DNA of 64,000 nucleotides from Thermoanaerobaculia bacterium (GCA_035996815.1 DASYJF010000114.1:70786-134785); one strand, 5' to 3'; counted from the first letter of the stretch, positions 3,500 through 60,995 are shown. Translations and numbers: made by a program. Notes: generated by a model from the letters alone, not told the origin.

Positions 3500-4936
3500 T
3501 TACAGTGAGCGCAGGAAGTTCAAAAGGTCCTGCTTCTCCGTATTCGCCAGAGCATTGAAGTTGAGCACCGCGGTATTGGCCTCGGAGCCGGTCGAGGAAT
3601 GCTGATCGATGGCCTTGAGAAGGTCGGGGGTCCGGCCATCGTGCAGGAGGAAGATCCGCTTCCCAAGTCCCCACAGCGGCGCCGTGCGGAACTGGTCGCC
3701 CCCCGCCGTTCCTTGCGAGACGTTGTCTGCCAGCTTGGACCCCATGTGATGAATCTCCAGGTCGCTGAACAGGTTCATCTTCTGATTGTCAAGGCTGGGC
3801 GTGATCGACGACGAGAACGAAGGGAACACGTTGTGATGGCAGACCTCGCATCCGATCTTGTTGAAGAACTCCTCCCCTTTCTTGATCGAGTCTGTCCCGC
3901 CCGGCGTGTCCGGCGATCTCTCCGGCGGAGCCAGGAGACGCATGAACATTGCGAACTGCACGGAGTCGCTCAACGTATCGATGGAGCCGACGTTGAAGTT
4001 CGTATGGTCCTCGGGCGTCGCATTGAGCTTGCACGGATTGGGAAGTCCCAGGACCCTCTCCTCTTCGGGCGTGGGATGCTCCTGGGTGAACAGCTCGTTG
4101 CTCACGCCCTGCTCGACGTTGTAGGCCTCACCGGCAAAAAGCTCCAACGACTTGTTCTGGGCCTTCCAGCCGAAGCGGGCGATCGTGCCGTCGTTGCCGT
4201 TGTGGTTGAACGTTCCGGCGATGCCGAAAGAATTGCTGGCTACTGACGCCTGGTACGACAGAAGGTCGGTCTCCTCGATGTTCTCGACGAGACCCCCTCC
4301 GAATAACGGCGTCGGAATGCGGAAGATGACGTTGTTGTGTGCGACAGCCGAGGCAAAATCGGGCTGGGAAATCACGGACGTCGTGCAGGGACCGGCGTCA
4401 CTGCGCCCGGCGATGGTGAAGAGGTCCTCGACCCCGCCGTTCGGCTGGCTGGGGATGGGATTGCCGGCCGAATCGGTAAAAAAGATGAAGCGAGCCTCAC
4501 GCACAGGGCCGCTGAGGGTGACGAACGAAGGCGGCAAGTTGACCGCGCCGTCCGCACCCGCGTCGACGATCTGCGGATTGACCGCGGGGCTGGTGCCGCC
4601 GGTGGCGGGGAAAGCGTGGCAACGGGCGCAGCCCATTGCATTGAAACGGGGGCCGAGCCCCTTGCCTTTCTCGCCGCGGATCGTTCCGTTGACGGAGTCG
4701 ACCTCCTCGAAGCGGGTCTTTGCGTCGTTGAAGAAGTTCAGGATCGTGATGGGATTGTTCGCCGCCACCGAGGCGAGCGGCCCGCCCGCTCCGGGCGGAC
4801 CACCGCGAATGCCCGGATCGGACTGAGAGAACGCCTGGAGAGCAAACAACAAGACACCGAGGGTAAGGACCGCTGTAGTGCGCGATTTCACACAGACCTC
4901 CTTGAAGGGTTGACATCTACGACCAGCCTTGGACAC
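3500..4936 (-). CDS. DUF1111-family di-haem cytochrome c peroxidase-like protein (thiol oxidoreductase-like)
   Basis: Two CxxCH haem-binding motifs (CARCH, CEVCHH) about 230 aa apart, signal peptide, about 480 aa. This architecture is typical of DUF1111. Confidence 0.8.
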   Translation of the reverse strand: MSKAGRRCQPFKEVCVKSRTTAVLTLGVLLFALQAFSQSDPGIRGGPPGAGGPLASVAANNPITILNFFNDAKTRFEEVDSVNGTIRGEKGKGLGPRFNAMGCARCHAFPATGGTSPAVNPQIVDAGADGAVNLPPSFVTLSGPVREARFIFFTDSAGNPIPSQPNGGVEDLFTIAGRSDAGPCTTSVISQPDFASAVAHNNVIFRIPTPLFGGGLVENIEETDLLSYQASVASNSFGIAGTFNHNGNDGTIARFGWKAQNKSLELFAGEAYNVEQGVSNELFTQEHPTPEEERVLGLPNPCKLNATPEDHTNFNVGSIDTLSDSVQFAMFMRLLAPPERSPDTPGGTDSIKKGEEFFNKIGCEVCHHNVFPSFSSSITPSLDNQKMNLFSDLEIHHMGSKLADNVSQGTAGGDQFRTAPLWGLGKRIFLLHDGRTPDLLKAIDQHSSTGSEANTAVLNFNALANTEKQDLLNFLRSL

Positions 4937-7209: not shown

Positions 7210-7330
7210 GATGCTTCCGCCCCACGAACATCCTACGCCTGTTGAACCCGTGCCGCTTTGCACTCGTTATCTGGGCAAGTTTCGCCTCATTCCCGGCGCG
7301 CGTTGCCTCGCGAATGGCGACGCGTGGTCT

Positions 7331-7504
7331 CGATATCAGGAACGTTCGCCACGACATTGAAAAAAATCAGTTCGAGACTGAGAACGCGTGCCTCGATCAT
7401 GACGCCGTTGTCGCTTCGTATTGACGTGCGTTCATGATGGAACGGGCCGTTTTCACTGTCGAAGTGATTTTTTTTCAATGTCGTGGCGAACGTTCCTGAT
7501 ATCG
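7331..7504. repeat. MITE-like element: perfect 36-bp terminal inverted repeats (CGATATCAGGAACGTTCGCCACGACATTGAAAAAAA / reverse complement) flanking a 102-bp core
   Basis: 7331-7366 is the exact reverse complement of 7469-7504. The inner ends are A7 and T7 runs. Confidence 0.8.
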
Positions 7505-7595
7505 AGCTGCACGTTTCTGATAGGGAAGTGAACGTTTCTGATATCGAGCTGCACGCTTCTGATATGGAAGCGAACGTTCCCTATGTTGAAGCTCC
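7488..7595. repeat. about 2.5 tandem copies of a 42-bp unit (GAACGTTYCTGATATCGAGCTGCACGYTTCTGATAKGGAAGY) reusing the inverted-repeat-arm motif
   Basis: Direct repeats begin inside the right inverted repeat of the MITE-like element. Each unit contains an internal 21-bp sub-repeat and a GATATC palindrome. Confidence 0.75.
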
Positions 7596-7887: not shown

Positions 7888-7961
7888 TGGCTGGGAGACA
7901 GGGAGTCGAACCCCGATTGAGCGGTTCAGAGCCGCTTGTCCTACCATTGAACGATCTCCCA
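7888..7961 (-). tRNA. tRNA-Gln (anticodon CUG), CCA encoded
   Basis: The reverse complement folds as a cloverleaf: acceptor TGGGAGA/TCTCCCA, discriminator G, anticodon loop CUCUGAA, T-arm CGGGG-TTCGACT-CCCTG, then CCA. Confidence 0.8.
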
Positions 7962-9603: not shown

Positions 9604-10076
9604 TTCGTCTTGCCGGCGGCCTTCCTGCCCTTGCCGCGGATGTGGTTTACCCGCTTCATCTCCGCGAGGTGCGGGAGCAGGTGTTGAAACTCCTTCTTCC
9701 GGACCAGTTGGCGAACGACGGCGTAGATCTGCAGAACGGCGGTGCCGACGGCGTGACGGCGCTTGAGGTTTGCAGCGCTCACGCCGCGAAGCATCGACAT
9801 TAGTTCATCTTCGACGGCGCTCCAACGCTGGGCATCGTCCCGTTGTTGCCAGAAGTCTTCGACCGGCGCGCCGATGACGCTCGGCATGCGCGGATCCGCG
9901 CCGCCGGTAATGAGAGCGGCTTCCACGAATTCGGAATTGAGATGTGCTACGCGCGTCATCGAACGCGTCTGGCGAATGGTCAACTGCTGGAACTTCGGGA
10001 TGCGCGCCCGCAGCCGGCGAAGCTCCTCCACCAGCTCCGCGGGTTCAATCGGAGTGACTTCGGGATCATCGCTCAT
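9600..10076 (-). CDS. hypothetical protein, paralogue B of the duplicated unknown family; translationally coupled to the downstream membrane protein
   Basis: Aligns with the 6055..6600 product. Its stop overlaps the start of the 8428..9603 gene by 4 bp. Confidence 0.6.
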   Translation of the reverse strand: MSDDPEVTPIEPAELVEELRRLRARIPKFQQLTIRQTRSMTRVAHLNSEFVEAALITGGADPRMPSVIGAPVEDFWQQRDDAQRWSAVEDELMSMLRGVSAANLKRRHAVGTAVLQIYAVVRQLVRKKEFQHLLPHLAEMKRVNHIRGKGRKAAGKTK

Positions 10077-10189
10077 GACTCATGGAAGCGCGGCCCGGCC
10101 ACGAAGTCAAGAAAGGCGTCCTCGAAATGAGCTTGCGAGCGTACAGCAATGACAAAAGACACCCCCGACAAGGCGATTCGCTCACGGTG

Positions 10190-10531
10190 TTGATGTCGCC
10201 GGCATCAACGCCATGTCCGCCGCTGCACATTTTGATGTTCTGGAACATCAATCGATAGAGCCAGACCTCCTCTGTTGATGCGGGCTACATCAACAGACCA
10301 GGACGCGGTTGACCATTTTGATGGATGCCTGCATCAACATAGGCAGGGGGTCTTCAGTACTTGATGTCGGCGACTATTCGTTTGCTGTCGAAGGCATCAA
10401 CGCAGGCCTCGCGTGATCACCAATTTGATGTCATGGACATCAACGGGCGCAGTCTTCACGTGTCTTTTGATGTCGCAAACATCAAATGGAGTGAAGTCTG
10501 CCAAAGTGCTGCGCACGAAGGATGTTTGATG
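10190..10531. promoter_or_regulatory. array of about 7.5 dyad-symmetric sites TTGATG-N7/8-CATCAA at about 43-bp periodicity in a divergent intergenic region
   Basis: Dyads at 10190-10208, 10232-10251, 10275-10293, 10318-10337, 10361-10400 (long spacer), 10425-10443 and 10467-10485, plus a half site at 10526. Centre-to-centre spacing is 42-43 bp, or 53 bp around the long-spacer site. Confidence 0.7.
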
Positions 10532-10720
10532 CCCGCCGGAACCGCGGCACCTTTCGCGAAGCTTTGGAGTGCGGTGGCGATCGAGCCACCGCTTTGGGAG
10601 GGAGGGGGAAGCGTTCCCGTCGCGCGTACGCAAGCATCACATGCTGCGTATCGTCACCATTCCACCGCCCTCCCAAAGCGGCAGCTATGCCGCGCGCACT
10701 CCAAAGTGCTGCGCACGAAA
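10499..10720. repeat. interspersed structured repeat family E (CCAAAGTGCTGCGCACGAA ... GCTTTGGAGTGCGGTGGCGATCGAGCCACCGCTTTGGGAGGG), about 1.5 copies
   Basis: Near-identical to the reverse complement of 59805-59945. Contains internal inverted repeats. Confidence 0.75.
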
Positions 10721-14329: not shown

Positions 14330-14465
14330 CGTTTGTTACGCGCGCCTCCGCGCGCGATTTGTGGCGGCCGCCTCCGCGGCCGCGGTGTCCTGGCAGGTCC
14401 CTCGAACCCCGCGCTGAGCGCGGGGCTGGATTGTTACGCGCGCCTCCGCGCGCGACGGCGAACGC
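14330..14465. repeat. interspersed repeat family B (GCGCGCCTCCGCGCGC / GGCCGCCTCCGCGGCC / GAGCGCGGGGCTGGATTG motifs)
   Basis: Shares long blocks with 36900-37140 in inverted orientation. Confidence 0.7.
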
Positions 14466-14478
14466 GCGCTTGCGCCCG

Positions 14479-14629
14479 GAGCGCTGGCGTCTCGCCGGCT
14501 GGCTCGGCGGCGTCCCGCCGCCGAATATGAGGCTTGCGCGGGCTTCGTGTCACCAGCGAATGTTGAGGGTTTCGCGGTCCGGCGGCGAGACGCCGCCGGG
14601 CCAGCCGGCGAGGACGCCAGCCCTCCATC
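14479..14629. repeat. MITE-like repeat family A (about 145 bp; terminal inverted repeats GAGCGCTGGCGTCTCGCCGGCTGGCTCGGCGGCGTCC ... GGCGAGACGCCGCCGRGCCAGCCGGCGAGGACGCCAGC)
   Basis: Copies are also at 21737-21880 and 42861-43005. A half copy lies at 18931-18965. They produce recurring ERWRLAGWLGG pseudo-ORFs. Confidence 0.8.
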
Positions 14630-17866: not shown

Positions 17867-18788
17867 CTGATGTTTCGCTTTCGATTTCACCCGGCGCGTT
17901 CCCCTTCCAGCGGTCGTGCATCCACAACCATAACTCCGGGCGAGCTGCGATACGGCGGGAAATGACGTCGTTGATGCGCGCGGTGAGCGCCTCGGCGTTC
18001 TTCTCGTCGCTACTCAGTTGGTCGATCCGGATCGGTTCCTCGAACTCAAGACGGTGCCCGGTTGAGGCCGGAATGCAAAAACCGAACACAATCGCAGATT
18101 CCTGCCGCAACGCCATTTTTGCGGGAGCGTCAGTGGTCCACGCGGGACGGCCGAGAAAGGGCACGAGGATGCCCTCGCGCGGCTGCACGGCTTGATCCGG
18201 AAGAAGGATGACCACGCCCTTCTGCTGCAGTGCTTTGAGCAGCGGGCGAGCGGCACGCTGGCGGTCCACGACGTTCACACCCGTGCGCGCCCGAAGACGA
18301 ACGAGGTCGCGCTCGAGGAGGTCGTTGTCGAGCGGGCGCGCCACGGTGTGGACGTTCTTCACGTGCGCCATGACCGCCAGCCCGGCGATCTCCCAGCCCC
18401 CGTAATGCGCGCTGAGGAGGAGGACGCCGCGGCCGAGGGCGATCGCGTCCTGCAGGACTTCGGGGTTGGCGAAAAGACAGTAAGCGGGAATCTCTTCGAC
18501 CGGCACGTGCTGCATGCGAATCGTTTCCAGCGCCTCGCGGCCGAAGTGGCGCCAGCATTCATCGATGATGCGCCGCCGCTCGGCGTCACTCTTCTCCGGA
18601 AACGTCGCAGCGATGTTGCGCATGGCCAGCCGGTCGCGGCCGCGCAGGACGTGGCGCGCAAGTGCGCCGATGCGCGTTCCCCATCGGCGCAGCGCCGCTT
18701 CCGATCCGGCGCGGACCGCGCGCGCTGCGGCGCGATACAGAACGTATTCGACGCGCTGCAACAGCGCGTTCTTGCGGCGTCGGCTCAT
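17856..18788 (-). CDS. lysophospholipid/lipid A biosynthesis acyltransferase (LpxL/HtrB-like, LPLAT superfamily)
   Basis: LpxL-family length and sequence; HxxxxD-type acyltransferase block around LLSAHYGGWE (H, no D at +5). Confidence 0.8.
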   Translation of the reverse strand: MSRRRKNALLQRVEYVLYRAAARAVRAGSEAALRRWGTRIGALARHVLRGRDRLAMRNIAATFPEKSDAERRRIIDECWRHFGREALETIRMQHVPVEEIPAYCLFANPEVLQDAIALGRGVLLLSAHYGGWEIAGLAVMAHVKNVHTVARPLDNDLLERDLVRLRARTGVNVVDRQRAARPLLKALQQKGVVILLPDQAVQPREGILVPFLGRPAWTTDAPAKMALRQESAIVFGFCIPASTGHRLEFEEPIRIDQLSSDEKNAEALTARINDVISRRIAARPELWLWMHDRWKGNAPGEIESETSDGQ

Positions 18789-18796
18789 AGAAGTTC

Positions 18797-19038
18797 AGTG
18801 GACTAGTGGATCAGTAGATTAGTGGATTAGTAGGTCGGTGATCGGGCGATTGGTAGACGCTGAATCCGAGAAGAAGTCACGGGTAATACCCAATGGCCTT
18901 GCCTTAATTAGTTTTCGATGCTCGCGGCTGGAGCGCTGGCGTCTCGCCGGCTGGCTCGCCTGCGCAAACGCTTACGTTAAGGCCATTGCGGGTAATACCG
19001 AAGCTCCTGATCTACTAATCCACTAATCTACGAATCCA
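18797..19038. repeat. composite nested inverted-repeat structure: outer arms of repeat family D, inner 25-bp inverted repeats, central half copy of repeat A
   Basis: 18797-18840 is complementary to 19011-19038. 18881-18908 is approximately complementary to 18977-19000. 18931-18965 matches the repeat-A arm. Confidence 0.7.
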
Positions 19039-19865
19039 CTGAGTTTCTCGAGGATTTCGGGCTCGATGATCATCTCCGCGGCGATGGCGATGATGTCACG
19101 GTCATCAATCTTCACCGCGTCTTTTTCAGTCGTCACGATGGCCTCGGCGCCGGCGGTTGCGGCCGATGCTTTGATCGACGCGATGTCGGCGGCGGTGTAG
19201 CGATGATGGTCGCGAAAGCTTCTTGTTCCGATCACGTTCAGCCCGTTCGCGCGCAACGACGCGAAGAACTGTTCGTTGTCAGCGAGTCCGGCGAAGGCGA
19301 AGATGCGGCGTCCCGTCAATTCCTCCGGTACGACGAGTCGCAGGCGGCGTTGAATGACGAAATCGGCGTCCGCGAGCGCGGAGCGGCCTTCGCGCATGAT
19401 GCCGCCGCGCGTATCGATGACGACGTCGATGTCGCGGGCGAGCTGCAGGTGCTGGAAGCCGTCGTCGAGGATGAATACGTCGCACTCATTCACGTTTAAA
19501 AACTGAACAGCATTGTGATAACGCTTTGATCCGACAATTACGTCTATATTTTTCAGCTTGCTTTTCAACAGCACCGGTTCGTCGCCGAACTTCGCGGCAT
19601 CGAGCGACGTGACCAGGCCCGAAGCGTTGCCGGCGCGTCCGTAACCGCGCGTCAGCACGGCTACACGGAAGCCGCGCTTTTCGAGATAGCGGGCGATGGT
19701 GATGACCGCAGGCGTCTTCCCGGCGCCGCCGGCAGCGAGGTTGCCGACCGAGATCACCGGCCGCGGGAGGCGCTTGCTCTTCAAGATGCCGCGACGGTAC
19801 AGCGCGCGGCGCAGCCGGTTGACGCCGCGCCAGAGGAACTCGATCGGTTTGAGGAGGAGCGTCAC
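19023..19865 (-). CDS. lpxK: tetraacyldisaccharide 4'-kinase
   Basis: P-loop GNLAAGGAGKTP and LpxK-like sequence. GTG start overlaps the waaA stop (GTGA). Confidence 0.85.
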   Translation of the reverse strand: MTLLLKPIEFLWRGVNRLRRALYRRGILKSKRLPRPVISVGNLAAGGAGKTPAVITIARYLEKRGFRVAVLTRGYGRAGNASGLVTSLDAAKFGDEPVLLKSKLKNIDVIVGSKRYHNAVQFLNVNECDVFILDDGFQHLQLARDIDVVIDTRGGIMREGRSALADADFVIQRRLRLVVPEELTGRRIFAFAGLADNEQFFASLRANGLNVIGTRSFRDHHRYTAADIASIKASAATAGAEAIVTTEKDAVKIDDRDIIAIAAEMIIEPEILEKLSGFVD

Positions 19866-21193: not shown

Positions 21194-21703
21194 ATGCCTA
21201 CAGAGAACAACATCGTCTTTGGTCCGAACGCGAAGTCGTCTGATGTGACGCCGTATTCGCTCGGCGTTCTGCGCGATGTCATGACCGCCGCCAACGTCGC
21301 GAAGCTGACCATCTCCAGCACGCAGCGGAGCCCGGCCGATCAGGCGCGAGTGATGTTCAACAACCTCGAGACGCAGGGCATCGCGGCGCAGCGCCGGCTC
21401 TACAAGGCGCCCGGGCAGGCGGTCATCGACGTCTACGAGGCCGGCAAAGCCGCGGGGAAAACGTCCGACGCGATCAAGGCGGAGATGACCGCGAAGATCA
21501 ACGAGCTCGGTCCGATGAACGTCTCCCATCACGCCGCCGATCCGAAACTGCTCAACGTCTTCGATGTTGCGCCGTCGTCGGTAGCGGACGTGAACGCGTT
21601 CCAAGCTGCGGCGAAAAAAGACCCGCGCGTTTCGAAGTTCCTGACGCCGCCGAACGATCCCGGACTTCACTTCGAGATCCCGCAGCCGGGCGACGGCGAG
21701 TAA
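21194..21703 (+). CDS. hypothetical protein (169 aa)
   Basis: Clean ORF of balanced composition, divergent from waaA. No recognised domain. Confidence 0.4.
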   Translation: MPTENNIVFGPNAKSSDVTPYSLGVLRDVMTAANVAKLTISSTQRSPADQARVMFNNLETQGIAAQRRLYKAPGQAVIDVYEAGKAAGKTSDAIKAEMTAKINELGPMNVSHHAADPKLLNVFDVAPSSVADVNAFQAAAKKDPRVSKFLTPPNDPGLHFEIPQPGDGE

Positions 21704-21736
21704 GACCTGTCTTAACTTAAACTTAAGCGCGCAACG

Positions 21737-21880
21737 GAGCGCTGGCGTCCTCGCCGGCTGGCGCGGCTGCGTCCTCGCTGCCGAACCGGCAAACCCTCAA
21801 ATTTCGCTGATAACACCACGTCTGCGCAAGCCTCCCATTCGGCAGCGGGACGCAGCCGAGCCAGCCGGCGAGACGCCAGC
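21737..21880. repeat. MITE-like repeat family A copy
   Basis: Terminal inverted repeats match those of 14479-14629 and 42861-43005. Confidence 0.8.
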
Positions 21881-21950
21881 GTTCCGGCCTCCAACGCGCG
21901 CGAAAGTTAGTTAGTGAGCCTCGGGCAACCAACGCTGCCGGCCGTGCCGG

Positions 21951-23012
21951 CTACGCGCGGTACAGCGCGGCGCCCCAGTGCAGGCCGGAGCCGAGGGCGG
22001 TGAAGCAGACCAGCATCCCGGGTTTGATGCGGCCGTCGGCGACGCACTCGTGGTAGAGGATCGGCAGCGTGCCGGCGGTCGTGTTGCCGTAGCGTTCGAT
22101 GTTGTGCGGCACGCGGTCGGGTCCGAGGCCAAGCTGTTTGGCGACGCCTTCGACGATGCGCAGGTTGGCTTGATGAATCAGGAGCACGTCGATGTCGGAC
22201 ACGCTGACAGCTGACGCCGCGCAGACCTCGCGCACCGACTCCGGCATCTTGGAAAGCGCCTGACGAAAGACCTCGCGGCCGTCCATGTCCGGGATGATGT
22301 CGCCGTCGTCGATCTGCTGGTGCGTCACGAACGGACGCAGGCGGAATCCGATGCCGCGCGTGTAGAGCGCTTCGATGTTCGAGCCGTTCGTGTAGAGCTT
22401 CGAGGCCAGAAATCCGCGGCCGTTATCGTCCATCGCCTCGATGACGACCGCGCCTGCGCCGTCGCCGAAGAGCACGACGCGGTCGCGGATCTTCGTGTTG
22501 TCCTCGCGCTCCTTGGCAGTGACCTCGCGATCCTCAAGACCGATGGTCGTATCCCAGCCGTTCTGCCACGGCATGAACGGCGTGTGGACATCGCCGCCGA
22601 TCAGCAGGATGCGCGCGTACTTGCCGCTGCGGATCAGCGAGTCGGCGAGGTCGAGGCCGTAGAGAAAACCGGAGCACTGCTGGCGGATGTCGAACGCCGG
22701 CATCGACTCGCGAAAGCCCATCTTCGCCTGCACGACCGGACCGTTGCCTGGAAAGAAATGGTCGGGCGTCATCGTGGCGAAGATCAGCGCGTCGATGTCA
22801 TCCTGCGTCCGGCCCGCCGCCTTCATCGCCGCCTCGGCTGCGATCATGCCGAGGTCCGAGGATGACTGGCCGGGATCGGCATAGTGGCGTTGCTTGATGC
22901 CGCTACGCGTTTGAATCCACTCGTCACTCGTATCCATGATGCGGGCGAGTTTCTCGTTCGGAACGACGTTCTTCGGGATGCCGATCCCGCTGCCGGTGAT
23001 CACGCTTTTCAT
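21951..23012 (-). CDS. 3-oxoacyl-ACP synthase III family protein (KAS III/FabH-like) with an internal insertion
   Basis: Thiolase-fold KAS III sequence including the active-site Cys region (QQCSGF). An extra charged segment of about 20 aa (DREVTAKEREDNTKIRDR) sits in the middle. Confidence 0.8.
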   Translation of the reverse strand: MKSVITGSGIGIPKNVVPNEKLARIMDTSDEWIQTRSGIKQRHYADPGQSSSDLGMIAAEAAMKAAGRTQDDIDALIFATMTPDHFFPGNGPVVQAKMGFRESMPAFDIRQQCSGFLYGLDLADSLIRSGKYARILLIGGDVHTPFMPWQNGWDTTIGLEDREVTAKEREDNTKIRDRVVLFGDGAGAVVIEAMDDNGRGFLASKLYTNGSNIEALYTRGIGFRLRPFVTHQQIDDGDIIPDMDGREVFRQALSKMPESVREVCAASAVSVSDIDVLLIHQANLRIVEGVAKQLGLGPDRVPHNIERYGNTTAGTLPILYHECVADGRIKPGMLVCFTALGSGLHWGAALYRA

Positions 23013-36899: not shown

Positions 36900-37140
36900 G
36901 CCGCTGCAAGCGGGCGTGGTCGCGCGCGGAGGCGCGCTTAAGAATGCAGCCCCGCGCTCTGCGCGGGGTTTGGTAAGCCGCCCGAATGCGGCGGCCGCGG
37001 AGGCGGCCGCCACACGGTTCGCGCGGCACGAGCATTTTGTAGTGGCCGCCTCCGCGGCCACGAACTTTCTTCACACCGGTTTCCCCCGCGCAGAGCGCGG
37101 GGCTGGATTGCGGAGCGCGCCTCCGCGCGCGACCGATTTG
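36900..37140. repeat. interspersed repeat family B copy (inverted relative to 14330-14465)
   Basis: Shared GCGCGCGGAGGCGCGC / GGCCGCGGAGGCGGCC / CAGAGCGCGGGGCTGGATTG blocks. Confidence 0.7.
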
Positions 37141-41995: not shown

Positions 41996-42106
41996 TGGGA
42001 GTGGGGAGTTGGGGGTGGGGAGTGGGAGCAGACCCCGGCGTGAGGCGCGTGCGCTGTTGATTTTGCCTCTGCTGCCACACCCCACACCCAACTCCCCATA
42101 CCCCGG
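41996..42106. repeat. G-tract/C-tract hairpin repeat family C (GGGAGTGGGGAGTTGGGGGTGGGGAGTGGGAG ... CCACACCCCACACCCAACTCCCCATACCCC)
   Basis: Imperfect inverted repeat with at least 6 consecutive G3-5 tracts. A second copy is at 48714-48800. Confidence 0.8.
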
Positions 42107-42114
42107 AGAAAAAA

Positions 42115-42825
42115 ATGAAACGACTCATTGCCCTCGCATTTCTCTTCGCCCTGCCGTTGATCGCTGACGAGAAAGCCGCATCCGTCCTGGCGCGCGCCGA
42201 CGTCTTCCGCAATCCGATCGAGAGCTTCTCCGTCGACGTCGAGCTGACCTCATTCGCAACCGGCGGGAAAACTGACACGTCGCGCTTTCGGGTCTTCGGA
42301 AGAGGGAGTGACCGAAGCGTCGTCGAGTTCACCTTTCCGCAGACGGAGAAGGGCAAGTACCTGCTGATGCTGCGCGACGCGATGTGGATCTACATCCCGA
42401 CCGCCAGCCGGCCGATCCGCATCTCGCCGTTGCAACGGCTCATGGGACAGGCCTCGAACGGCGATGTGGCGCGCACGAGTTTCACCGTCGATTACAACGC
42501 GACAGCGGTGGCCGAGGATGGCGACGCATTCGTCATCGACCTCGTGGCCAAGGATCCATCCGTCGCCTACAACCGCGTGCGGCTGTGGATCGACAAGCAG
42601 TCGTACGAGCCGCGCCGTGCGGACTTTTACGTCGTCTCCGGAAAATTGATCAAGCGCGCAACCTACAAGGCGTACGGAACGATGGCAGGCCGGCGCGTGG
42701 TGACGGAGATCGAGATCGACGATCTGCTGCGCCCGGGCAACCGCACTGTGATGCGCTACGCGAACCTGACGCCAAAAGAAAACGCCGAGAAGATGTTCAC
42801 GAAGGACGCGCTGGGCAAATGGTAA
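42115..42825 (+). CDS. outer-membrane lipoprotein-sorting (LolA-fold-like) protein
   Basis: Signal peptide and size and context typical of the family. Follows the LolD/LolC-like ABC pair. Confidence 0.7.
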   Translation: MKRLIALAFLFALPLIADEKAASVLARADVFRNPIESFSVDVELTSFATGGKTDTSRFRVFGRGSDRSVVEFTFPQTEKGKYLLMLRDAMWIYIPTASRPIRISPLQRLMGQASNGDVARTSFTVDYNATAVAEDGDAFVIDLVAKDPSVAYNRVRLWIDKQSYEPRRADFYVVSGKLIKRATYKAYGTMAGRRVVTEIEIDDLLRPGNRTVMRYANLTPKENAEKMFTKDALGKW

Positions 42826-42860
42826 AGCGATCGCCGATCGTGGCGCGCCGTTGGCGGCTG

Positions 42861-43005
42861 GAACGCTGGCGTCTCGCCGGCTGGCTCGGCGGCGTCCTCG
42901 CCGCCGAAGGGGAGGCTTGCGCAGGCGTTGCGGTATCAGCGAATGTCGAGGGTTCGGCGGTTCGGCGGCGAGACGCCGCCGAGCCAGCCGGCGAGGACGC
43001 CAGCG
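42861..43005. repeat. MITE-like repeat family A copy
   Basis: Terminal inverted repeats match those of 14479-14629 and 21737-21880. Confidence 0.8.
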
Positions 43006-43010
43006 CTCCG

Positions 43011-44090
43011 TTGCGCAAAATCGCCGTTGGCGCGTTCATCTTCATGGTCGCCACGACATCGTTGCGTGCCGAAACCTTCAAATTCTTCGGCTCCGCCGGC
43101 GCGGAATGGCAACTCACGCCCGCCAACGCCGCGTCGACATTGAACCCGCGCAACATTGCCGGCCTGCCGTACAGCAGCGGCTCCGGCGATGCCGTCGCCT
43201 CCCTCGACGCCGCGCCCGACAGCCGCGCGTGGAAGTTCCACCTCAAGCTGCGCGGCGATGCCGCCGAGGGTGGAGCGGAGCGGGCGGATGTCGGCGAAGC
43301 ATTCGTACAGCTCAATCCGAAACCGTGGCTCGACGTCACCATCGGACGCGTCATCGAAACGTGGGGCACCGGCTACGCCTGGAATCCGACCGCGTTCGTC
43401 AGTCCGAAAAAGAATCCTGCCGATCCGTCGGACCGCCGCTCCGCGAATGTCGGTGTGGACATGATCCGCACCGATCTTTTCATCCGCGGCACGAACGTTT
43501 CGCTCTACGCGCTGAATGACGGAGCCGTGGCAGGACGCGTCTACCGCCTCATTGCCGGCACCGACGTTTCGCTGCACTTTCGCCGCGACAGCGACGGCAC
43601 GCAGCAAGGCATCAGCGCCGCGCGCGTTTTCGGAGATGCCCTCGAACTGCACGGCGAGATCGCGCGGCGTCATGGACTGATCGGCGGCCAGTACACGTTC
43701 CGCGGAAACATCAACGTCGTCGCGGAGCTGTACCACGGCGGCGATGGACTCGACGAAAACGCGTTCCGTGCCTTTCGATCGGCCGCCGATTTCGCACACG
43801 ACGCCCAGACCTTTCGCGCGATCAACGCCGCCTATTCGCCGCTGCGCATGGCGCGCAACTACGGCTTCATCCGCGTCGACGTCCCGCACGACAAACTCGA
43901 CGTCGAGCTGATCGCCATCACGAATCTTCGCGACGGATCGCTGCTCGCGCGCGCTACGCTGTCGCTTCGCGTGCGTCCCAACGTCAGCATCTACGCCATC
44001 GACACCGAATTCGCCGGCGCGCGCGGCAGCGAGCTGTCGTACATGCAGGTGCGCCGCGTGACCACCGCCGGCGCGCGGGTGTATTTCTGA
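43011..44090 (+). CDS. putative outer-membrane beta-barrel protein
   Basis: Signal peptide (FIFMVATTSLRA). Alternating amphipathic beta-strand-like segments. C-terminal aromatic residue (..ARVYF). TTG/ATG start uncertain. The ORF part upstream (42384-43010) lies in the repeat and was rejected. Confidence 0.55.
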   Translation: MRKIAVGAFIFMVATTSLRAETFKFFGSAGAEWQLTPANAASTLNPRNIAGLPYSSGSGDAVASLDAAPDSRAWKFHLKLRGDAAEGGAERADVGEAFVQLNPKPWLDVTIGRVIETWGTGYAWNPTAFVSPKKNPADPSDRRSANVGVDMIRTDLFIRGTNVSLYALNDGAVAGRVYRLIAGTDVSLHFRRDSDGTQQGISAARVFGDALELHGEIARRHGLIGGQYTFRGNINVVAELYHGGDGLDENAFRAFRSAADFAHDAQTFRAINAAYSPLRMARNYGFIRVDVPHDKLDVELIAITNLRDGSLLARATLSLRVRPNVSIYAIDTEFAGARGSELSYMQVRRVTTAGARVYF

Positions 44091-46052: not shown

Positions 46053-46575
46053 GGACGTCACGTCCCACGGTGTGTGACGTCGCGCCCCGCGGTGCGGGCG
46101 TCGCGTCACACAGTGTGTTACGTCGCGCCCCGCGGTGCGGGCGTCGCGTCACACAGTGTGTTACGTCGCGCCCCGCGGTGCGGGCGTCGCGTCACACAGT
46201 GTGTTACGTCGCGTCCCGCGGTGCGGGCGTCGAGTCACACAGTGTGTTACGTCGCGTCCCGCGGTGCGGGCGTCGCGTCCCACGGTGTGTTACGTCGCGT
46301 CCCGCGGTGCGGGCGTCGAGTCACACAGTGTGTTACGTCGCGTCCGGCGGTGCGGGCGTCGCGTCCCACGGTGTGTTACGTCGCGTCCCGCGGTGCGGGC
46401 GTCGAGTCACACAGTGTGTTACGTCGCGTCCCGCGGTGCGGGCGTCGAGTCACACAGTGTGTTACGTCGCGTCCCGCGGTGCGGACGTCGGGTCCCCACG
46501 GTGTGTGACGTCGCTTCCCGCGGTGCGGAGGTCGCGTCCCACGGTGTGTGACGTCGCGTCCCGCGGTGCGGGCGC
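46053..46575. repeat. 43-bp minisatellite, about 12 tandem units (GTGTGTTACGTCGCGCCCCGCGGTGCGGGCGTCGCGTCACACA and variants), each unit hairpin-capable
   Basis: Exact 43-nt period counted. Unit variants differ at 2-4 positions. No unique spacers. Confidence 0.9.
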
Positions 46576-46694: not shown

Positions 46695-47690
46695 CTACTG
46701 AAGCCGGAAATTCACGGTCACCGTGTAGTACACATCGATCGGCTCGCCCCGGACCGTGGCGGGGCGGAAGTGCCACTGGCTGACGGCATCGCGAGCGGCG
46801 TCGCCGAGGCCGTAGGGGAGATCGCGGATGACTTCGACGTTGTCGATGGTCCCATCGCGGCGGACGATCCCGCGGACGACGACAGGCCCCTGGATCCCGG
46901 CGCGGCGCGCCATCATCGGATAGCGCGGTACGACGCGATCGGTCTCCTCCGGCTGCGTTCCGCCAGCCGGCACCGCGGAGTAAACGCCGCCGTTATCCGT
47001 CGCTACATGCACCGGGGCTGGCGCGGTTTCGGTGGGCGGCTGCGGCTCGCTTTCCGGCGGCGAGGCGGCGGATGTCGTCGCAGCGGTGTCGGTCGCAGTC
47101 GTATCGGTATGGACTTCGACCTGACGCGTTCCGGCGGAACTGACATCGATCGCATCAACATCGGCGTAGGCGATCTGGTTGTCGTGAGCGAGCGCGTAGA
47201 AATCGTGGTCGCGCGTGTAGACCTTCACCTGCGTCTCCGCGGACAGCTCGCCGATGATCGGATAGAAGATGCCCGGGCCGGCGTAGAGCGGCGTGCGCGC
47301 GCTGACGATGGCGTTGAGCGCCGGCAGCTTGCGGATCGTTTCGTAGCGCGCCAGGCGGCGCTCGCGCTCGGATGTCCGCTCCAGCGAGTTGCGCTCCGCC
47401 CAGCCGGTCATGCCGTCGTCGTCCTGCACGCGAACCCATGCGCCGCGGTCTTCGAGCACGATGAGCTTCTCGCCGTTGGTCGCGGTTGCGACGACGGGCG
47501 AATTCGCCGTCGGCTGCGTGCGGAGCCGGAGACGTAGCGCAAGCACCGACAGGTTTTCCGATGTGGGCGGCGGCGCGTCGTCGTGTTTTCCGCTGCGCAG
47601 AATCAGCAGCGCCAGCAGCGCGAAAAAAATCACGCCGAGGATGATGACGACGGTCAGGCCGCGCGTGTGCCGGGTTTGTGCGTCAGGCAT
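46695..47690 (-). CDS. TonB-family protein (N-terminal TM, SH3-like middle domain, Pro-rich linker, TonB-C domain)
   Basis: N-terminal transmembrane helix. C-terminal VVPRYP..ARRAGIQGPVVVRGIVRRDGTIDNVEVI..P.GL is the TonB-C signature. Confidence 0.8.
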   Translation of the reverse strand: MPDAQTRHTRGLTVVIILGVIFFALLALLILRSGKHDDAPPPTSENLSVLALRLRLRTQPTANSPVVATATNGEKLIVLEDRGAWVRVQDDDGMTGWAERNSLERTSERERRLARYETIRKLPALNAIVSARTPLYAGPGIFYPIIGELSAETQVKVYTRDHDFYALAHDNQIAYADVDAIDVSSAGTRQVEVHTDTTATDTAATTSAASPPESEPQPPTETAPAPVHVATDNGGVYSAVPAGGTQPEETDRVVPRYPMMARRAGIQGPVVVRGIVRRDGTIDNVEVIRDLPYGLGDAARDAVSQWHFRPATVRGEPIDVYYTVTVNFRLQ

Positions 47691-47781
47691 GTGGTAGTGG
47701 ATTACTGGACGAGTAGATTAGTGGATTAGGAAATCGCTTCGTGCCTCTTCTAATCTACTAATCCACTGATCACGAATCTAC
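47691..47781. repeat. repeat family D hairpin (GTGGTAGTGGATTACTGGACGAGTAGATTAGTGGATTAGG ... CTAATCTACTAATCCACTGATCACGAATCTAC)
   Basis: Inverted repeat between the argF stop and the TonB start. Same family as 18797-19038 and 60915-60995. Confidence 0.75.
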
Positions 47782-48713: not shown

Positions 48714-48800
48714 ATGGGAGTGGGAGTAGGGAGTGGGAGACCCGAGGTGGTTTGCTGTTGTTGCCTATCTCCCACTCCCCATCCCCCACGCCCCACTCCC
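48714..48800. repeat. G-tract/C-tract hairpin repeat family C copy
   Basis: GGGAGTGGGAGTAGGGAGTGGGAGA ... TCTCCCACTCCCCATCCCCCACGCCCCACTCCC. Confidence 0.8.
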
Positions 48801-52047: not shown

Positions 52048-52058
52048 GGCGCAATGAT

Positions 52059-52270
52059 AGTGGTTAGTGGCCAGTGGTTAGTGGCCAGTGGTCAGGAAGG
52101 CAATGAGTGGTCAACTGGCGACGGTGAGGTAGGAATGAGCGGTTAGTCGCCGGTGAAGGGCGCGATCATCATCACTGACCACTGACCACTGACCACTGAC
52201 CACTGACCACTGACCACTGACCACTGACCACTGGCCACTGACCACTGGCCACTAACCACTGGCCACTAAC
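52059..52270. repeat. long imperfect inverted repeat whose right arm is an octamer microsatellite (CCACTGAC) of about 8 units plus GGCCACTAACCACT variants
   Basis: Left arm 52059-52097 (GTGGTTAGTGGCCAGTGG...) is complementary to the right arm 52173-52270. It lies in the divergent region between the 51358..52047 gene and ykgJ. Confidence 0.85.
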
Positions 52271-52294
52271 AACTACTTCCCGTACACTCTCGCC

Positions 52295-59777: not shown

Positions 59778-59804
59778 AAGGCGCGGATCGCCGCGTTTGC
59801 CCCC

Positions 59805-59945
59805 CTCCCAAAGCGGTGGCTCGATCGCCACCGCACTCCAAAGCTTCGCGAAATGTGCCTCGGGCGGCGCTCAGATCGAAGCTTTCGTGCGCAGCACTTT
59901 GGAGTGCGCGCGGCGACGAGCCGCCGCTTTGGGAGGGCGGGTGGA
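59805..59945. repeat. repeat family E copy (inverted relative to 10499-10720)
   Basis: Reverse complement matches 10499-10607 and 10660-10720 almost base for base. Confidence 0.75.
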
Positions 59946-60747: not shown

Positions 60748-60906
60748 ATGCCTGACCAGAAAGCACATGAGGTACTTCGGAAGCACAACATCTCGCTCGA
60801 AGACGTGAGGGAACGCCGCACCACACTGCATCACCTTCGTCATATCGTCCACGCCGAGGAGCTCCCTTTCGACGTGTTCAAAGCAATCGTCAAACTGCGG
60901 CGGTAG
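60748..60906 (+). CDS. possible small (52 aa) protein
   Basis: GGGAGA ribosome-binding site 6 nt upstream of the ATG. Lower GC. Followed by the repeat-D hairpin. Competes with an antisense 91-aa ORF (60709..60984). Confidence 0.3.
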   Translation: MPDQKAHEVLRKHNISLEDVRERRTTLHHLRHIVHAEELPFDVFKAIVKLRR

Positions 60907-60914
60907 AAGCCAGT

Positions 60915-60995
60915 CGGTTAGTGGATTAGTAGATTCGTGGATCAGGAACGCGTGGTTTTCCGGATCGACGAATCTACTGATCACTAATCCACTGC
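60915..60995. repeat. repeat family D hairpin copy
   Basis: CGGTTAGTGGATTAGTAGATTCGTGGATCAG ... CGAATCTACTGATCACTAATCCACTG. Confidence 0.75.

Follow-up and report, generated by a model that had tools for sequence, protein, structure and literature searches.

A dispersed hairpin repeat of Thermoanaerobaculia that probably belongs to the REP/REPIN type

A 64,000-nt stretch of DNA from a Thermoanaerobaculia bacterium (GCA_035996815.1, DASYJF010000114.1:70786-134785; hereafter the window, with a G+C content of 62.6%) contains a GC-rich palindromic repeat, family A, at a density of 3.5 copies per 64 kb, and the question that it raises is whether this repeat is a MITE, a REP-like element or a local duplication. 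The original prediction called the family MITE-like, with a REP-like nature as the alternative, and placed it at four sites; the sequence at these sites is as described, and comparison with 81 related elements allowed us to refine the boundaries. Copy 1 (14478-14626, plus strand; arms ~14478-14525 and ~14579-14626, spacer ~14526-14578) has on one side the stop codon of a PepF-like gene (14326) and on the other that of a minus-strand 191-aa gene (14640). Copy 2 (21736-21885, minus strand) separates two convergent genes, one encoding 169 aa (stop at 21703) and the other FabH-like (stop at 21951), and copy 3 occupies 42860-43009 on the plus strand, its 150 nt corresponding to 50 codons. All three are full head-to-head dimers, whereas the fourth site (18930-18964, plus strand) holds an arm-only copy, or singlet, made of the terminal unit GGAGCGCTGGCGTCTCGCCGGCTGGC and a truncated second hairpin.

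The relatedness of these copies is beyond what base composition produces: the 21-mer GCTGGCGTCTCGCCGGCTGGC occurs exactly four times in the window compared with 0.01 occurrences expected from dinucleotide-preserving shuffles, and copy 3 is 88% identical to copy 1 and to copy 2 over the full length, including the core. The full copies are small (149-150 nt) and non-coding, and their inverted arms of ~47 nt exceed the 10-15 bp taken as the minimum for terminal inverted repeats; across the 81 elements the palindrome is mostly one C/G pair longer, with C at position -1 in 67/81 and G at position +1 in 65/81. Folding predictions with DNA or RNA parameters give each full copy a hairpin whose stem measures ~47 bp, at z-scores of -9.2 to -12.7. 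Copy 2 had been described as inverted in its core only. However, one arm contains GCGTCTCGCC and the other GGCGAGGACGCC, and because this asymmetry is swapped in copy 2 together with the core, the entire element is inverted relative to copies 1 and 3.

Comparison of the arms revealed how the repeat is built. Its smallest building block is a GC-rich hairpin motif of 23 nt, GGCTGG-NNCGNN-GGCGTCYCGCC, and an arm, or monomer, consists of two such units in tandem (~48 nt), a periodicity seen within the arm of copy 3 (42855-42903, plus strand), where hp1, GCTGGCG-TCT-CGCCGGC, is followed by hp2, TCGGCGGCG-TCCT-CGCCGCCGA. The terminal unit begins with an unpaired (C)GGAGC tag (GGAG or GGAA, then C across the family), followed by the 7-bp stem GCTGGCG/CGCCGGC with a TCT loop and a fixed T.G mismatch. 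This hp1 is practically invariant, partly owing to the way in which the compared arms were selected, and its T.G (U.G) pair is present in 100 of 101 distinct arms; sister families have G-C (A2, with GGAGCGCGGGCGTCCCGCCCGC) or C-G at this position. The second unit, hp2, combines a constant loop, GCGTCYCGC, with a variable stem of 8-10 bp, in which 67 alignment cells changed on both sides of the stem compared with 18.7 +/- 3.3 in shuffled controls (0/500). Examples of compensatory change are C-G to T-A, G-C to A-T via G.T, and C-G to G-C or A-T. Thus, hp2 keeps its hairpin shape while its sequence drifts, and the hairpins are under constraint. A separate, recurrent and coordinated stem change converts G-C to T.T (GGCTGCG..CGCTGCC; alignment columns 33/44) in 17-18 of 101 arms with many different outer stems, distinguishes the orthologous singlets of two species (L070 7259 and L074 7500) and makes two GCWGC pentamers, 10 nt apart, out of GCSGC.

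The ~150-bp elements of the window are head-to-head dimers of this monomer, with the tags facing outward around a conserved spacer of ~53 nt, a layout that allows a single strand to fold into the one long hairpin predicted above. Two spacer families are conserved across species, one of ~35 nt (GGTTACCAGCGAATGTTGGGAGTCTTGCCGG) and the ~53-nt window type, which contains the ~35-nt one, whereas other arm pairs surround unrelated DNA (L010, L099 and L106), so that elements total 70-209 nt. Adjacent termini form 84 head-to-head, 7 tail-to-tail and 12 head-to-tail pairs, with spacers that are conserved in head-to-head but variable in tail-to-tail pairs. A further 84 termini have no partner inside 260 nt, and many of these are true singlets that give way directly to unrelated sequence. 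Tail-to-tail singlets are retained at an orthologous site in two species (L070 and L074).

To determine whether the repeat is dispersed or merely duplicated locally, we conducted a genome census as an exact-match scan with one genome per species. It returned at least 112 family A loci in at least 14 assemblies; among the matches listed were 12 assemblies of Thermoanaerobaculia, one of Acidobacteriota and one, a single contig, of Gemmatimonadaceae. The metagenome-assembled genome (MAG) JADGNY01 by itself holds at least 44 loci with at least 107 termini and at least 38 full elements, on separate contigs. The family is therefore not limited to the copies seen in the window, and the expectation of a dispersed family was borne out. 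Among the loci listed, the best other-species matches of the window copies are full length at 89-93% identity, which equals or exceeds the 88% between copies inside the window. An exact-match search of viral and phage contigs and a blastn search of plasmids both came back empty. As to the host, homologues of the window's LolA-like protein at 80-81% identity belong to Thermoanaerobaculia bacterium MAGs, and the sole long nucleotide match between the window and the fetched genome loci is one gene, 78.6% identical, in a Thermoanaerobaculia MAG. Family A is common to many uncultured soil Acidobacteria of the class Thermoanaerobaculia. The original prediction also held that the density in the window would mean hundreds of copies genome-wide; the orthologous 490 kb of close relatives contain only four elements of family A proper, all at one orthologous site. 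We found no description of the family in the literature on repeats in Thermoanaerobaculia or Acidobacteria.

Next, we compared the sites themselves, using 79 orthologous loci around the WaaA gene taken from metagenomes. At the site of copy 2, the junction between the 169-aa and FabH-like genes, a strain 98% identical to the window has, like the window, 247 nt there, including copy 2, whereas ten relatives, among them the closest ones (88-90% WaaA identity), are empty, with the two stop codons 0-10 nt apart. Locus L145 has a different, shorter family A element at this site and L121 an unrelated palindrome; the latter is a member of a repeat family, CTTTGGAGTGCGGTGGCG...CCACCGCTTTGGGAGGG, that forms inverted pairs in the window at 10542-10720 and 59800-59941. 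The site of copy 1, the junction between the PepF-like and 191-aa genes, is empty in one relative (L140), with a 3-nt gap, and is occupied by unrelated hairpin elements in others. Upstream of WaaA, orthologous family A elements are present in four lineages at lengths of 149, 126, 103 and 103 nt, differing by whole 23-nt units, and other lineages have A2, remnants or other hairpins there. These comparisons show that copies are gained, lost and remodelled. This part of the original prediction received support: presence/absence polymorphism is evident at the site of copy 2. Overall, family A is dispersed, its copies come and go between related lineages, and its arms gain and lose 23-nt units.

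Such behavior could be that of a classical MITE. An element of this kind derives by deletion from a DDE-type insertion sequence, relies on its long terminal inverted repeats for cut-and-paste or copy-paste transposition and leaves target-site duplications. The size of ~150 bp, the lack of coding capacity, the inverted ends of ~47 nt, the dispersal and the insertion polymorphism are all consistent with this explanation. However, direct repeats flanking the 81 elements were at the level of permuted controls for k = 2-8 in all 16 offset combinations, with none at k of at least 6, and there is therefore no target-site duplication. An 11-nt direct repeat around copy 3, CGCCGTTGGCG, was considered as one and rejected, because the family has none and removing the 182 nt concerned breaks the reading frame. 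Moreover, true singlets, tail-to-tail pairs and variants in the number of 23-nt units are frequent, and unrelated DNA separates the two inverted monomers in L010, L099 and L106. Loci totalling 0.8 Mb were inspected for widely spaced inverted termini, and none of these enclosed an insertion sequence with family A ends (CGGAGCGCTGGCG...). The one long interval, 3 kb in L050, was rejected as a parent element because its genes are pilT-like and membrane-protein genes and none encodes a transposase. Elsewhere, inversely oriented termini without a partner lie only ~0.4 kb apart, which is too short for a transposase. We therefore consider a classical MITE highly unlikely: the name in its strict sense does not fit a family in which 81 elements lack target-site duplications, the examined DNA contains no autonomous element with the same termini, and singlets, tail-to-tail pairs and unit variants are common. 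The term MITE-like is correct only loosely.

The singlet also speaks for the MITE explanation. As the original prediction had noticed, this half copy sits within a nested structure, which we can now describe as the singlet inside an element B, and B inside the loop of a hairpin made of 8-nt arrays. Element B (18891-18988, 98 nt) has inverted ends CAATGGCCTT.../...AAGGCCATTG and is bounded by a 10-nt direct repeat, GGGTAATACC (18881-18890 and 18990-18999), of which L158, L122 and L127 have a single copy without an insert. B looks like a true MITE insertion, and its possession of an A singlet means that some A copies do move within a MITE-like carrier. Some family A elements in other genomes are also bounded by B ends, and part of the spread of the family could thus be hitch-hiking. 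We nevertheless rejected B (ends CAATGGCC...) as the true ends of family A: B termini number only 11 compared with 245 A termini, and family A is therefore not simply the interior of B. The outer hairpin (18781-19044), which surrounds both B and the singlet and is located in the gap between LpxK and LpxL, consists of inverted 8-nt tandem arrays, AGTGGATT/AGTAGATT at 18781-18853 and their complements at 19004-19044. In relatives this gap holds arrays of other units (GTTGTCG, CAGAGAT, CACTGAC and others) or no array.

Several other repeats were observed in the window. Hairpins of inverted 8-nt arrays (AGTGGATT/AGTAGATT facing AATCTACT/AATCCACT) also lie at 47688-47771 and 60904-60982, and inverted 7-nt arrays lie at 52058-52291, with 13.6 units of CACTGAC (52173-52267) facing AGTGGTTAGTGGCC units (52059-52095). 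A 43-nt tandem repeat (46056-46574; 12 units, 93% matches), the unit of which, CGTCGCGTCACACAGTGTGTTACGTCGCGTCCCGCGGTGCGGG, has two small palindromes, fills a gap without a JGI gene call between a response regulator and a TonB_C/SH3 protein. A palindromic family, CCCCGCGCWGAGCGCGGGGCTGGATTG...CGCGCGCCTCCGCGCGCGAC, is located immediately upstream of copy 1 (14333-14465) and again 22 kb off (36910-37134). A perfect 38-nt inverted repeat (7329-7366 and 7469-7506, with 102 nt between its arms) continues from the second arm into 21/42-nt tandem repeats, ACGTTTCTGATATCGAGCTGC (7486-7580), in a relatively AT-rich region ~300 nt from a minus-strand tRNA gene (7891-7961). Finally, G-rich inverted repeats, GGGAGTGGGGAGTTGGGGGTGGGG and its complement, lie just upstream of the LolA-like gene (41997-42103) and 6.7 kb away (48769-48800).

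We then asked where the elements lie relative to genes. Gaps holding full elements comprised 19 convergent, 36 tandem and 4 divergent ones compared with 72, 273 and 70 among background gaps, so that by these crude GC3-based gene calls convergent gaps are enriched (19/59 versus 72/415; odds ratio 2.26, p = 0.012) and elements are rare in divergent gaps (4 versus 70, p = 0.054). In tandem gaps the spacer was oriented sense to the co-directional genes in 11 cases and antisense in 10, that is, without bias. The claim that all window copies sit in short gaps beside stop codons holds for copies 1 and 2, which lie between convergent genes, but not for copy 3, which begins 35 nt past the stop of the LolA-like gene and lies in frame within the former 5' coding end of the next gene. 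In-frame copies are also known from A2 (CCTG-GGAGCGCGGGCGTCCCGCCCGC...GCGGGCGGGACGCCCGCGCTCC-CAGG, ~74 nt), which we observed at an orthologous position within a membrane-protein gene (L133 1322-1395, L139 6991-7064, L146 1381-1454 and L147 7031-7104), where it encodes ...PGSAGVPPAVL...ARRAGRPRSQG... and the reading frame remains open. Overall, family A prefers gene 3' ends and has no strand bias, and in-frame copies in coding DNA are possible.

A preference of this kind might also be expected of a host-selected, non-mobile hairpin that serves as a bidirectional transcription stop, insulator, stabilizer of mRNA 3' ends or protein-binding site, is spread and made uniform by recombination or gene conversion and is kept by selection. 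Consistent with this explanation are the enrichment between convergent and depletion between divergent genes, the compensatory changes that maintain hp2 pairing and the retention of the tail-to-tail singlets of L070 and L074. Further, at four orthologous junctions nearly every lineage has some hairpin, the families being unrelated, and the element upstream of WaaA lies between a stop codon and a conserved stretch containing TATGAT. However, the three window copies, when inspected as Rho-independent terminators, have the hairpin but no T/U run in the sequence that follows (ATCGCTGG, GTTGCGCAAAATC and GGCCTCCAAC), and family A elements are therefore not canonical intrinsic terminators. Some lineages have no element at all, their stops being 0-10 nt apart, and in-frame copies also occur inside coding DNA. 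A window copy finds its closest match in another species, not in the genome that carries it, and spacers are conserved between species; both observations point to copying of whole elements. Gene conversion, in addition, cannot make a copy where none existed. Overall, we regard a purely host-selected, immobile element as unlikely.

That family A encodes a small structured RNA or acts as a cis-regulatory RNA, with transcription from one strand, is barely credible. The predicted structure is indeed very stable, and G.U pairs are found on one strand of both hp1 and hp2. However, in Rfam 15 the only family in the window is a tRNA, and at the gathering or E-value threshold nothing meaningful was returned for family A; the best score for the element, 41 bits compared with a gathering score of 268, came from a generic microRNA-precursor hairpin model, and such far-sub-threshold hairpin matches occur on both strands. 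The spacer is randomly oriented with respect to its neighbors (11 to 10), length and spacer vary widely (70 to 209 nt), and dozens of copies are present per genome.

The position of copy 3 affects gene annotation. In relatives, the gene after the LolA-like gene starts with an ATG that overlaps the LolA stop (ATGGTAA) and encodes a product of 357-374 aa. In the window, the same ATG, at 42819, opens a reading frame that passes in frame through copy 3, and the JGI gene call, taken from the metagenome contig Ga0372940_0000050 (122,913 bp), which holds the window in reverse orientation, is 423 aa. A likely new start, TTG at 43011, lies after copy 3 and precedes an intact signal peptide (LRKIAVGAFIFMVATTSLRA/ETFKFF), and copy 3 is therefore probably not translated now. 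At the exact place of copy 3, loci L198 (~3750-3790) and L200 have a 22-nt stretch resembling an A terminus, GGACCGCCGGCGGCTCGCCGGC, which is translated as RRLDRRRLAG within the n-region of the signal peptide that the gene following the LolA-like one encodes. This stretch could represent a remnant or else a favored target site; L199 and L201 lack any such sequence at this place. The pollution of automated annotation anticipated in the original prediction is thus real, given the inflated 423-aa call, but modest, since among 5.8 billion entries of the protein database only 8 short hypothetical proteins match the family A translation. In practical terms, the repeats distort gene calls, through that inflated call and the short "hypothetical proteins", and break assemblies, as two contigs from other samples terminate within copy 2.

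The original prediction suggested a cognate transposase of the IS200/IS605 type or of another kind. A six-frame scan of 1.89 Mb for HUH and YxxxNP motifs detected no Y1/HUH reading frame beside any family A unit, and tblastn of E. coli RayT and IS200 TnpA sequences against all loci matched only a frameshifted RayT in L095. RayT genes do exist in the clade, but at each of the five places examined (L095, L203, L204/L205 and L206-L208) the flanking REP is a different one, of the type GTGGCACAGACA-NNNN-TGTCTGTGCC. Specifically, the RayT of L095 (5864-6291, frameshifted) and those of L203, L204 and L206 (~10001-10510) are flanked on both sides by (A)TGTGGCACAGACA-CTCT-TGTCTGTGCC REPs, and the fetched homologues of the L095 RayT, inspected together with their flanks, all carry a GGCACAGACA-type REP and none carries family A. 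The expected partner was thus not borne out at these places. The REP of the RayT type was also observed in the PepF/191-aa junction of L133.

Taken together, the reading that fits best is the alternative named at the outset. Family A is a short imperfect palindrome that occurs as singlets and mostly head-to-head dimers with conserved spacers, that inserts without target-site duplication and that is located chiefly on the downstream side of genes, in gaps between ORFs that converge or run in one direction (by crude gene calls; the window copies fit this pattern). It is probably, therefore, a REP/REPIN-type (BIME-like) repeat of Thermoanaerobaculia (Acidobacteriota), best described as a new family of a familiar kind with compound arms, REP-like in behavior rather than a classical MITE. 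Several observations count against this reading. The tag is none of the published variants (GYAG, GYRG, GTRG, GTMG, GTGG; CGTC/TGTC/CCTC; PMC3733652), and no RAYT gene flanked by family A was present among the loci sampled. The monomer, ~48 nt with two hairpins, exceeds the 20-40 nt of a classical REP, and pairing does not explain the G-C to T.T change at one stem position.

If the REP/REPIN reading is right, family A copies would spread as non-autonomous DNA by way of a single-stranded hairpin intermediate, which a trans-acting enzyme recognizing the invariant tagged terminal hairpin, probably an HUH/Y1 protein of the RAYT kind, would handle. The copies would be tolerated and might even be useful, as a hairpin at transcript 3' ends could stop or stabilize transcripts arriving from either side. 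A broader proposal, which we put forward as quite doubtful, is that family A and its sister families (A2 and others, with a GGAGC tag and a GCNGGCG-TCY-CGCCNGC hairpin) may form a REP-like superfamily of Acidobacteriota, mobilized by a non-RayT enzyme or by a transposase-free route, and that hosts may draw on interchangeable, mutually unrelated mobile hairpins as bidirectional terminators that lack a U tract; the latter part is suggested by the different hairpin families that lineages carry at the same orthologous junctions. The quick turnover of unrelated hairpins at such junctions could in any case serve the study of transcription termination in this phylum. Family A is a repeat family, without a published description that we could find, from a class of soil Acidobacteria that is little known and mostly uncultured. 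It is also a clean case of REP-style organization in which no RayT was found next to the repeats, in genomes that possess a RayT-REP system of other sequence. It thereby sharpens the question of how "orphan" REPs spread.

Finally, we compared family A with known systems. The BIMEs of E. coli and the RIMEs of Rhizobium are mosaics in which palindromic units alternate in orientation and are joined by conserved linker motifs; they are located between genes at gene ends, and BIMEs bind gyrase, IHF and Pol I. Family A is like them in its mosaic organization, gene-end position and variable unit number, without a sequence relation. An integron attC site was considered and rejected: there is no one-directional cassette array, and the flank GTTGCGC, on reading, does not fit GTTRRRY. 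Classical MITEs such as the Correia elements share with family A the size, long terminal inverted repeats, non-coding nature, dispersal and insertion polymorphism. However, the definition of a MITE includes target-site duplications (PMC11602168), which family A lacks, no parent insertion sequence was found in the loci searched, and half elements are common, as is variation in architecture. Rickettsia palindromic elements (RPE; cited in PMC3733652) are likewise palindromic repeats able to sit in frame within ORFs, and the apparent counterparts here, judged from sequence, are copy 3, which adds 50 codons to an annotated ORF, and the A2 in the membrane-protein gene; unlike RPE, family A copies are mostly intergenic.

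The closest likeness is to REPs and REPINs (Bertels & Rainey 2011, PMC3116915; Di Nocera et al. 2013, PMC3733652), which, like family A, are tagged short imperfect palindromes with an unpaired conserved tag at one end, occur as singlets and as inverted dimers that may form a single long hairpin, show G.T pairs and complementary variants in their stems, produce no target-site duplication, lie mainly downstream of genes, in convergent or unidirectional gaps, with occasional in-frame copies near ORF N termini, and persist across related species. REP dimers in particular have been described as singlets and mostly head-to-head pairs with conserved head-to-head and variable tail-to-tail spacers (PMC3733652). 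Family A differs in its GGAG(C) tag, which is not GTAG/CGTC, in its tandem two-hairpin monomer with variable unit number and in that no adjacent RAYT was found. CGTC REPs have stems of 8-9 bp that begin with A/T pairs and loops of 4-5 nt, whereas family A has all-G/C stems with CGTC within the loop region. TIRYTs are RAYT-like genes flanked by long inverted repeats that are not REPs, some of which are double palindromes, and an Acidobacteria group of them has been named (PMC3733652); no TIRYT-like gene was seen beside family A. CGTC REPs, for their part, form abundant REP dimers without a known dedicated transposase (PMC3733652), and by analogy it is these REPs, together with the TIRYT repeats, that the situation of family A appears to resemble.
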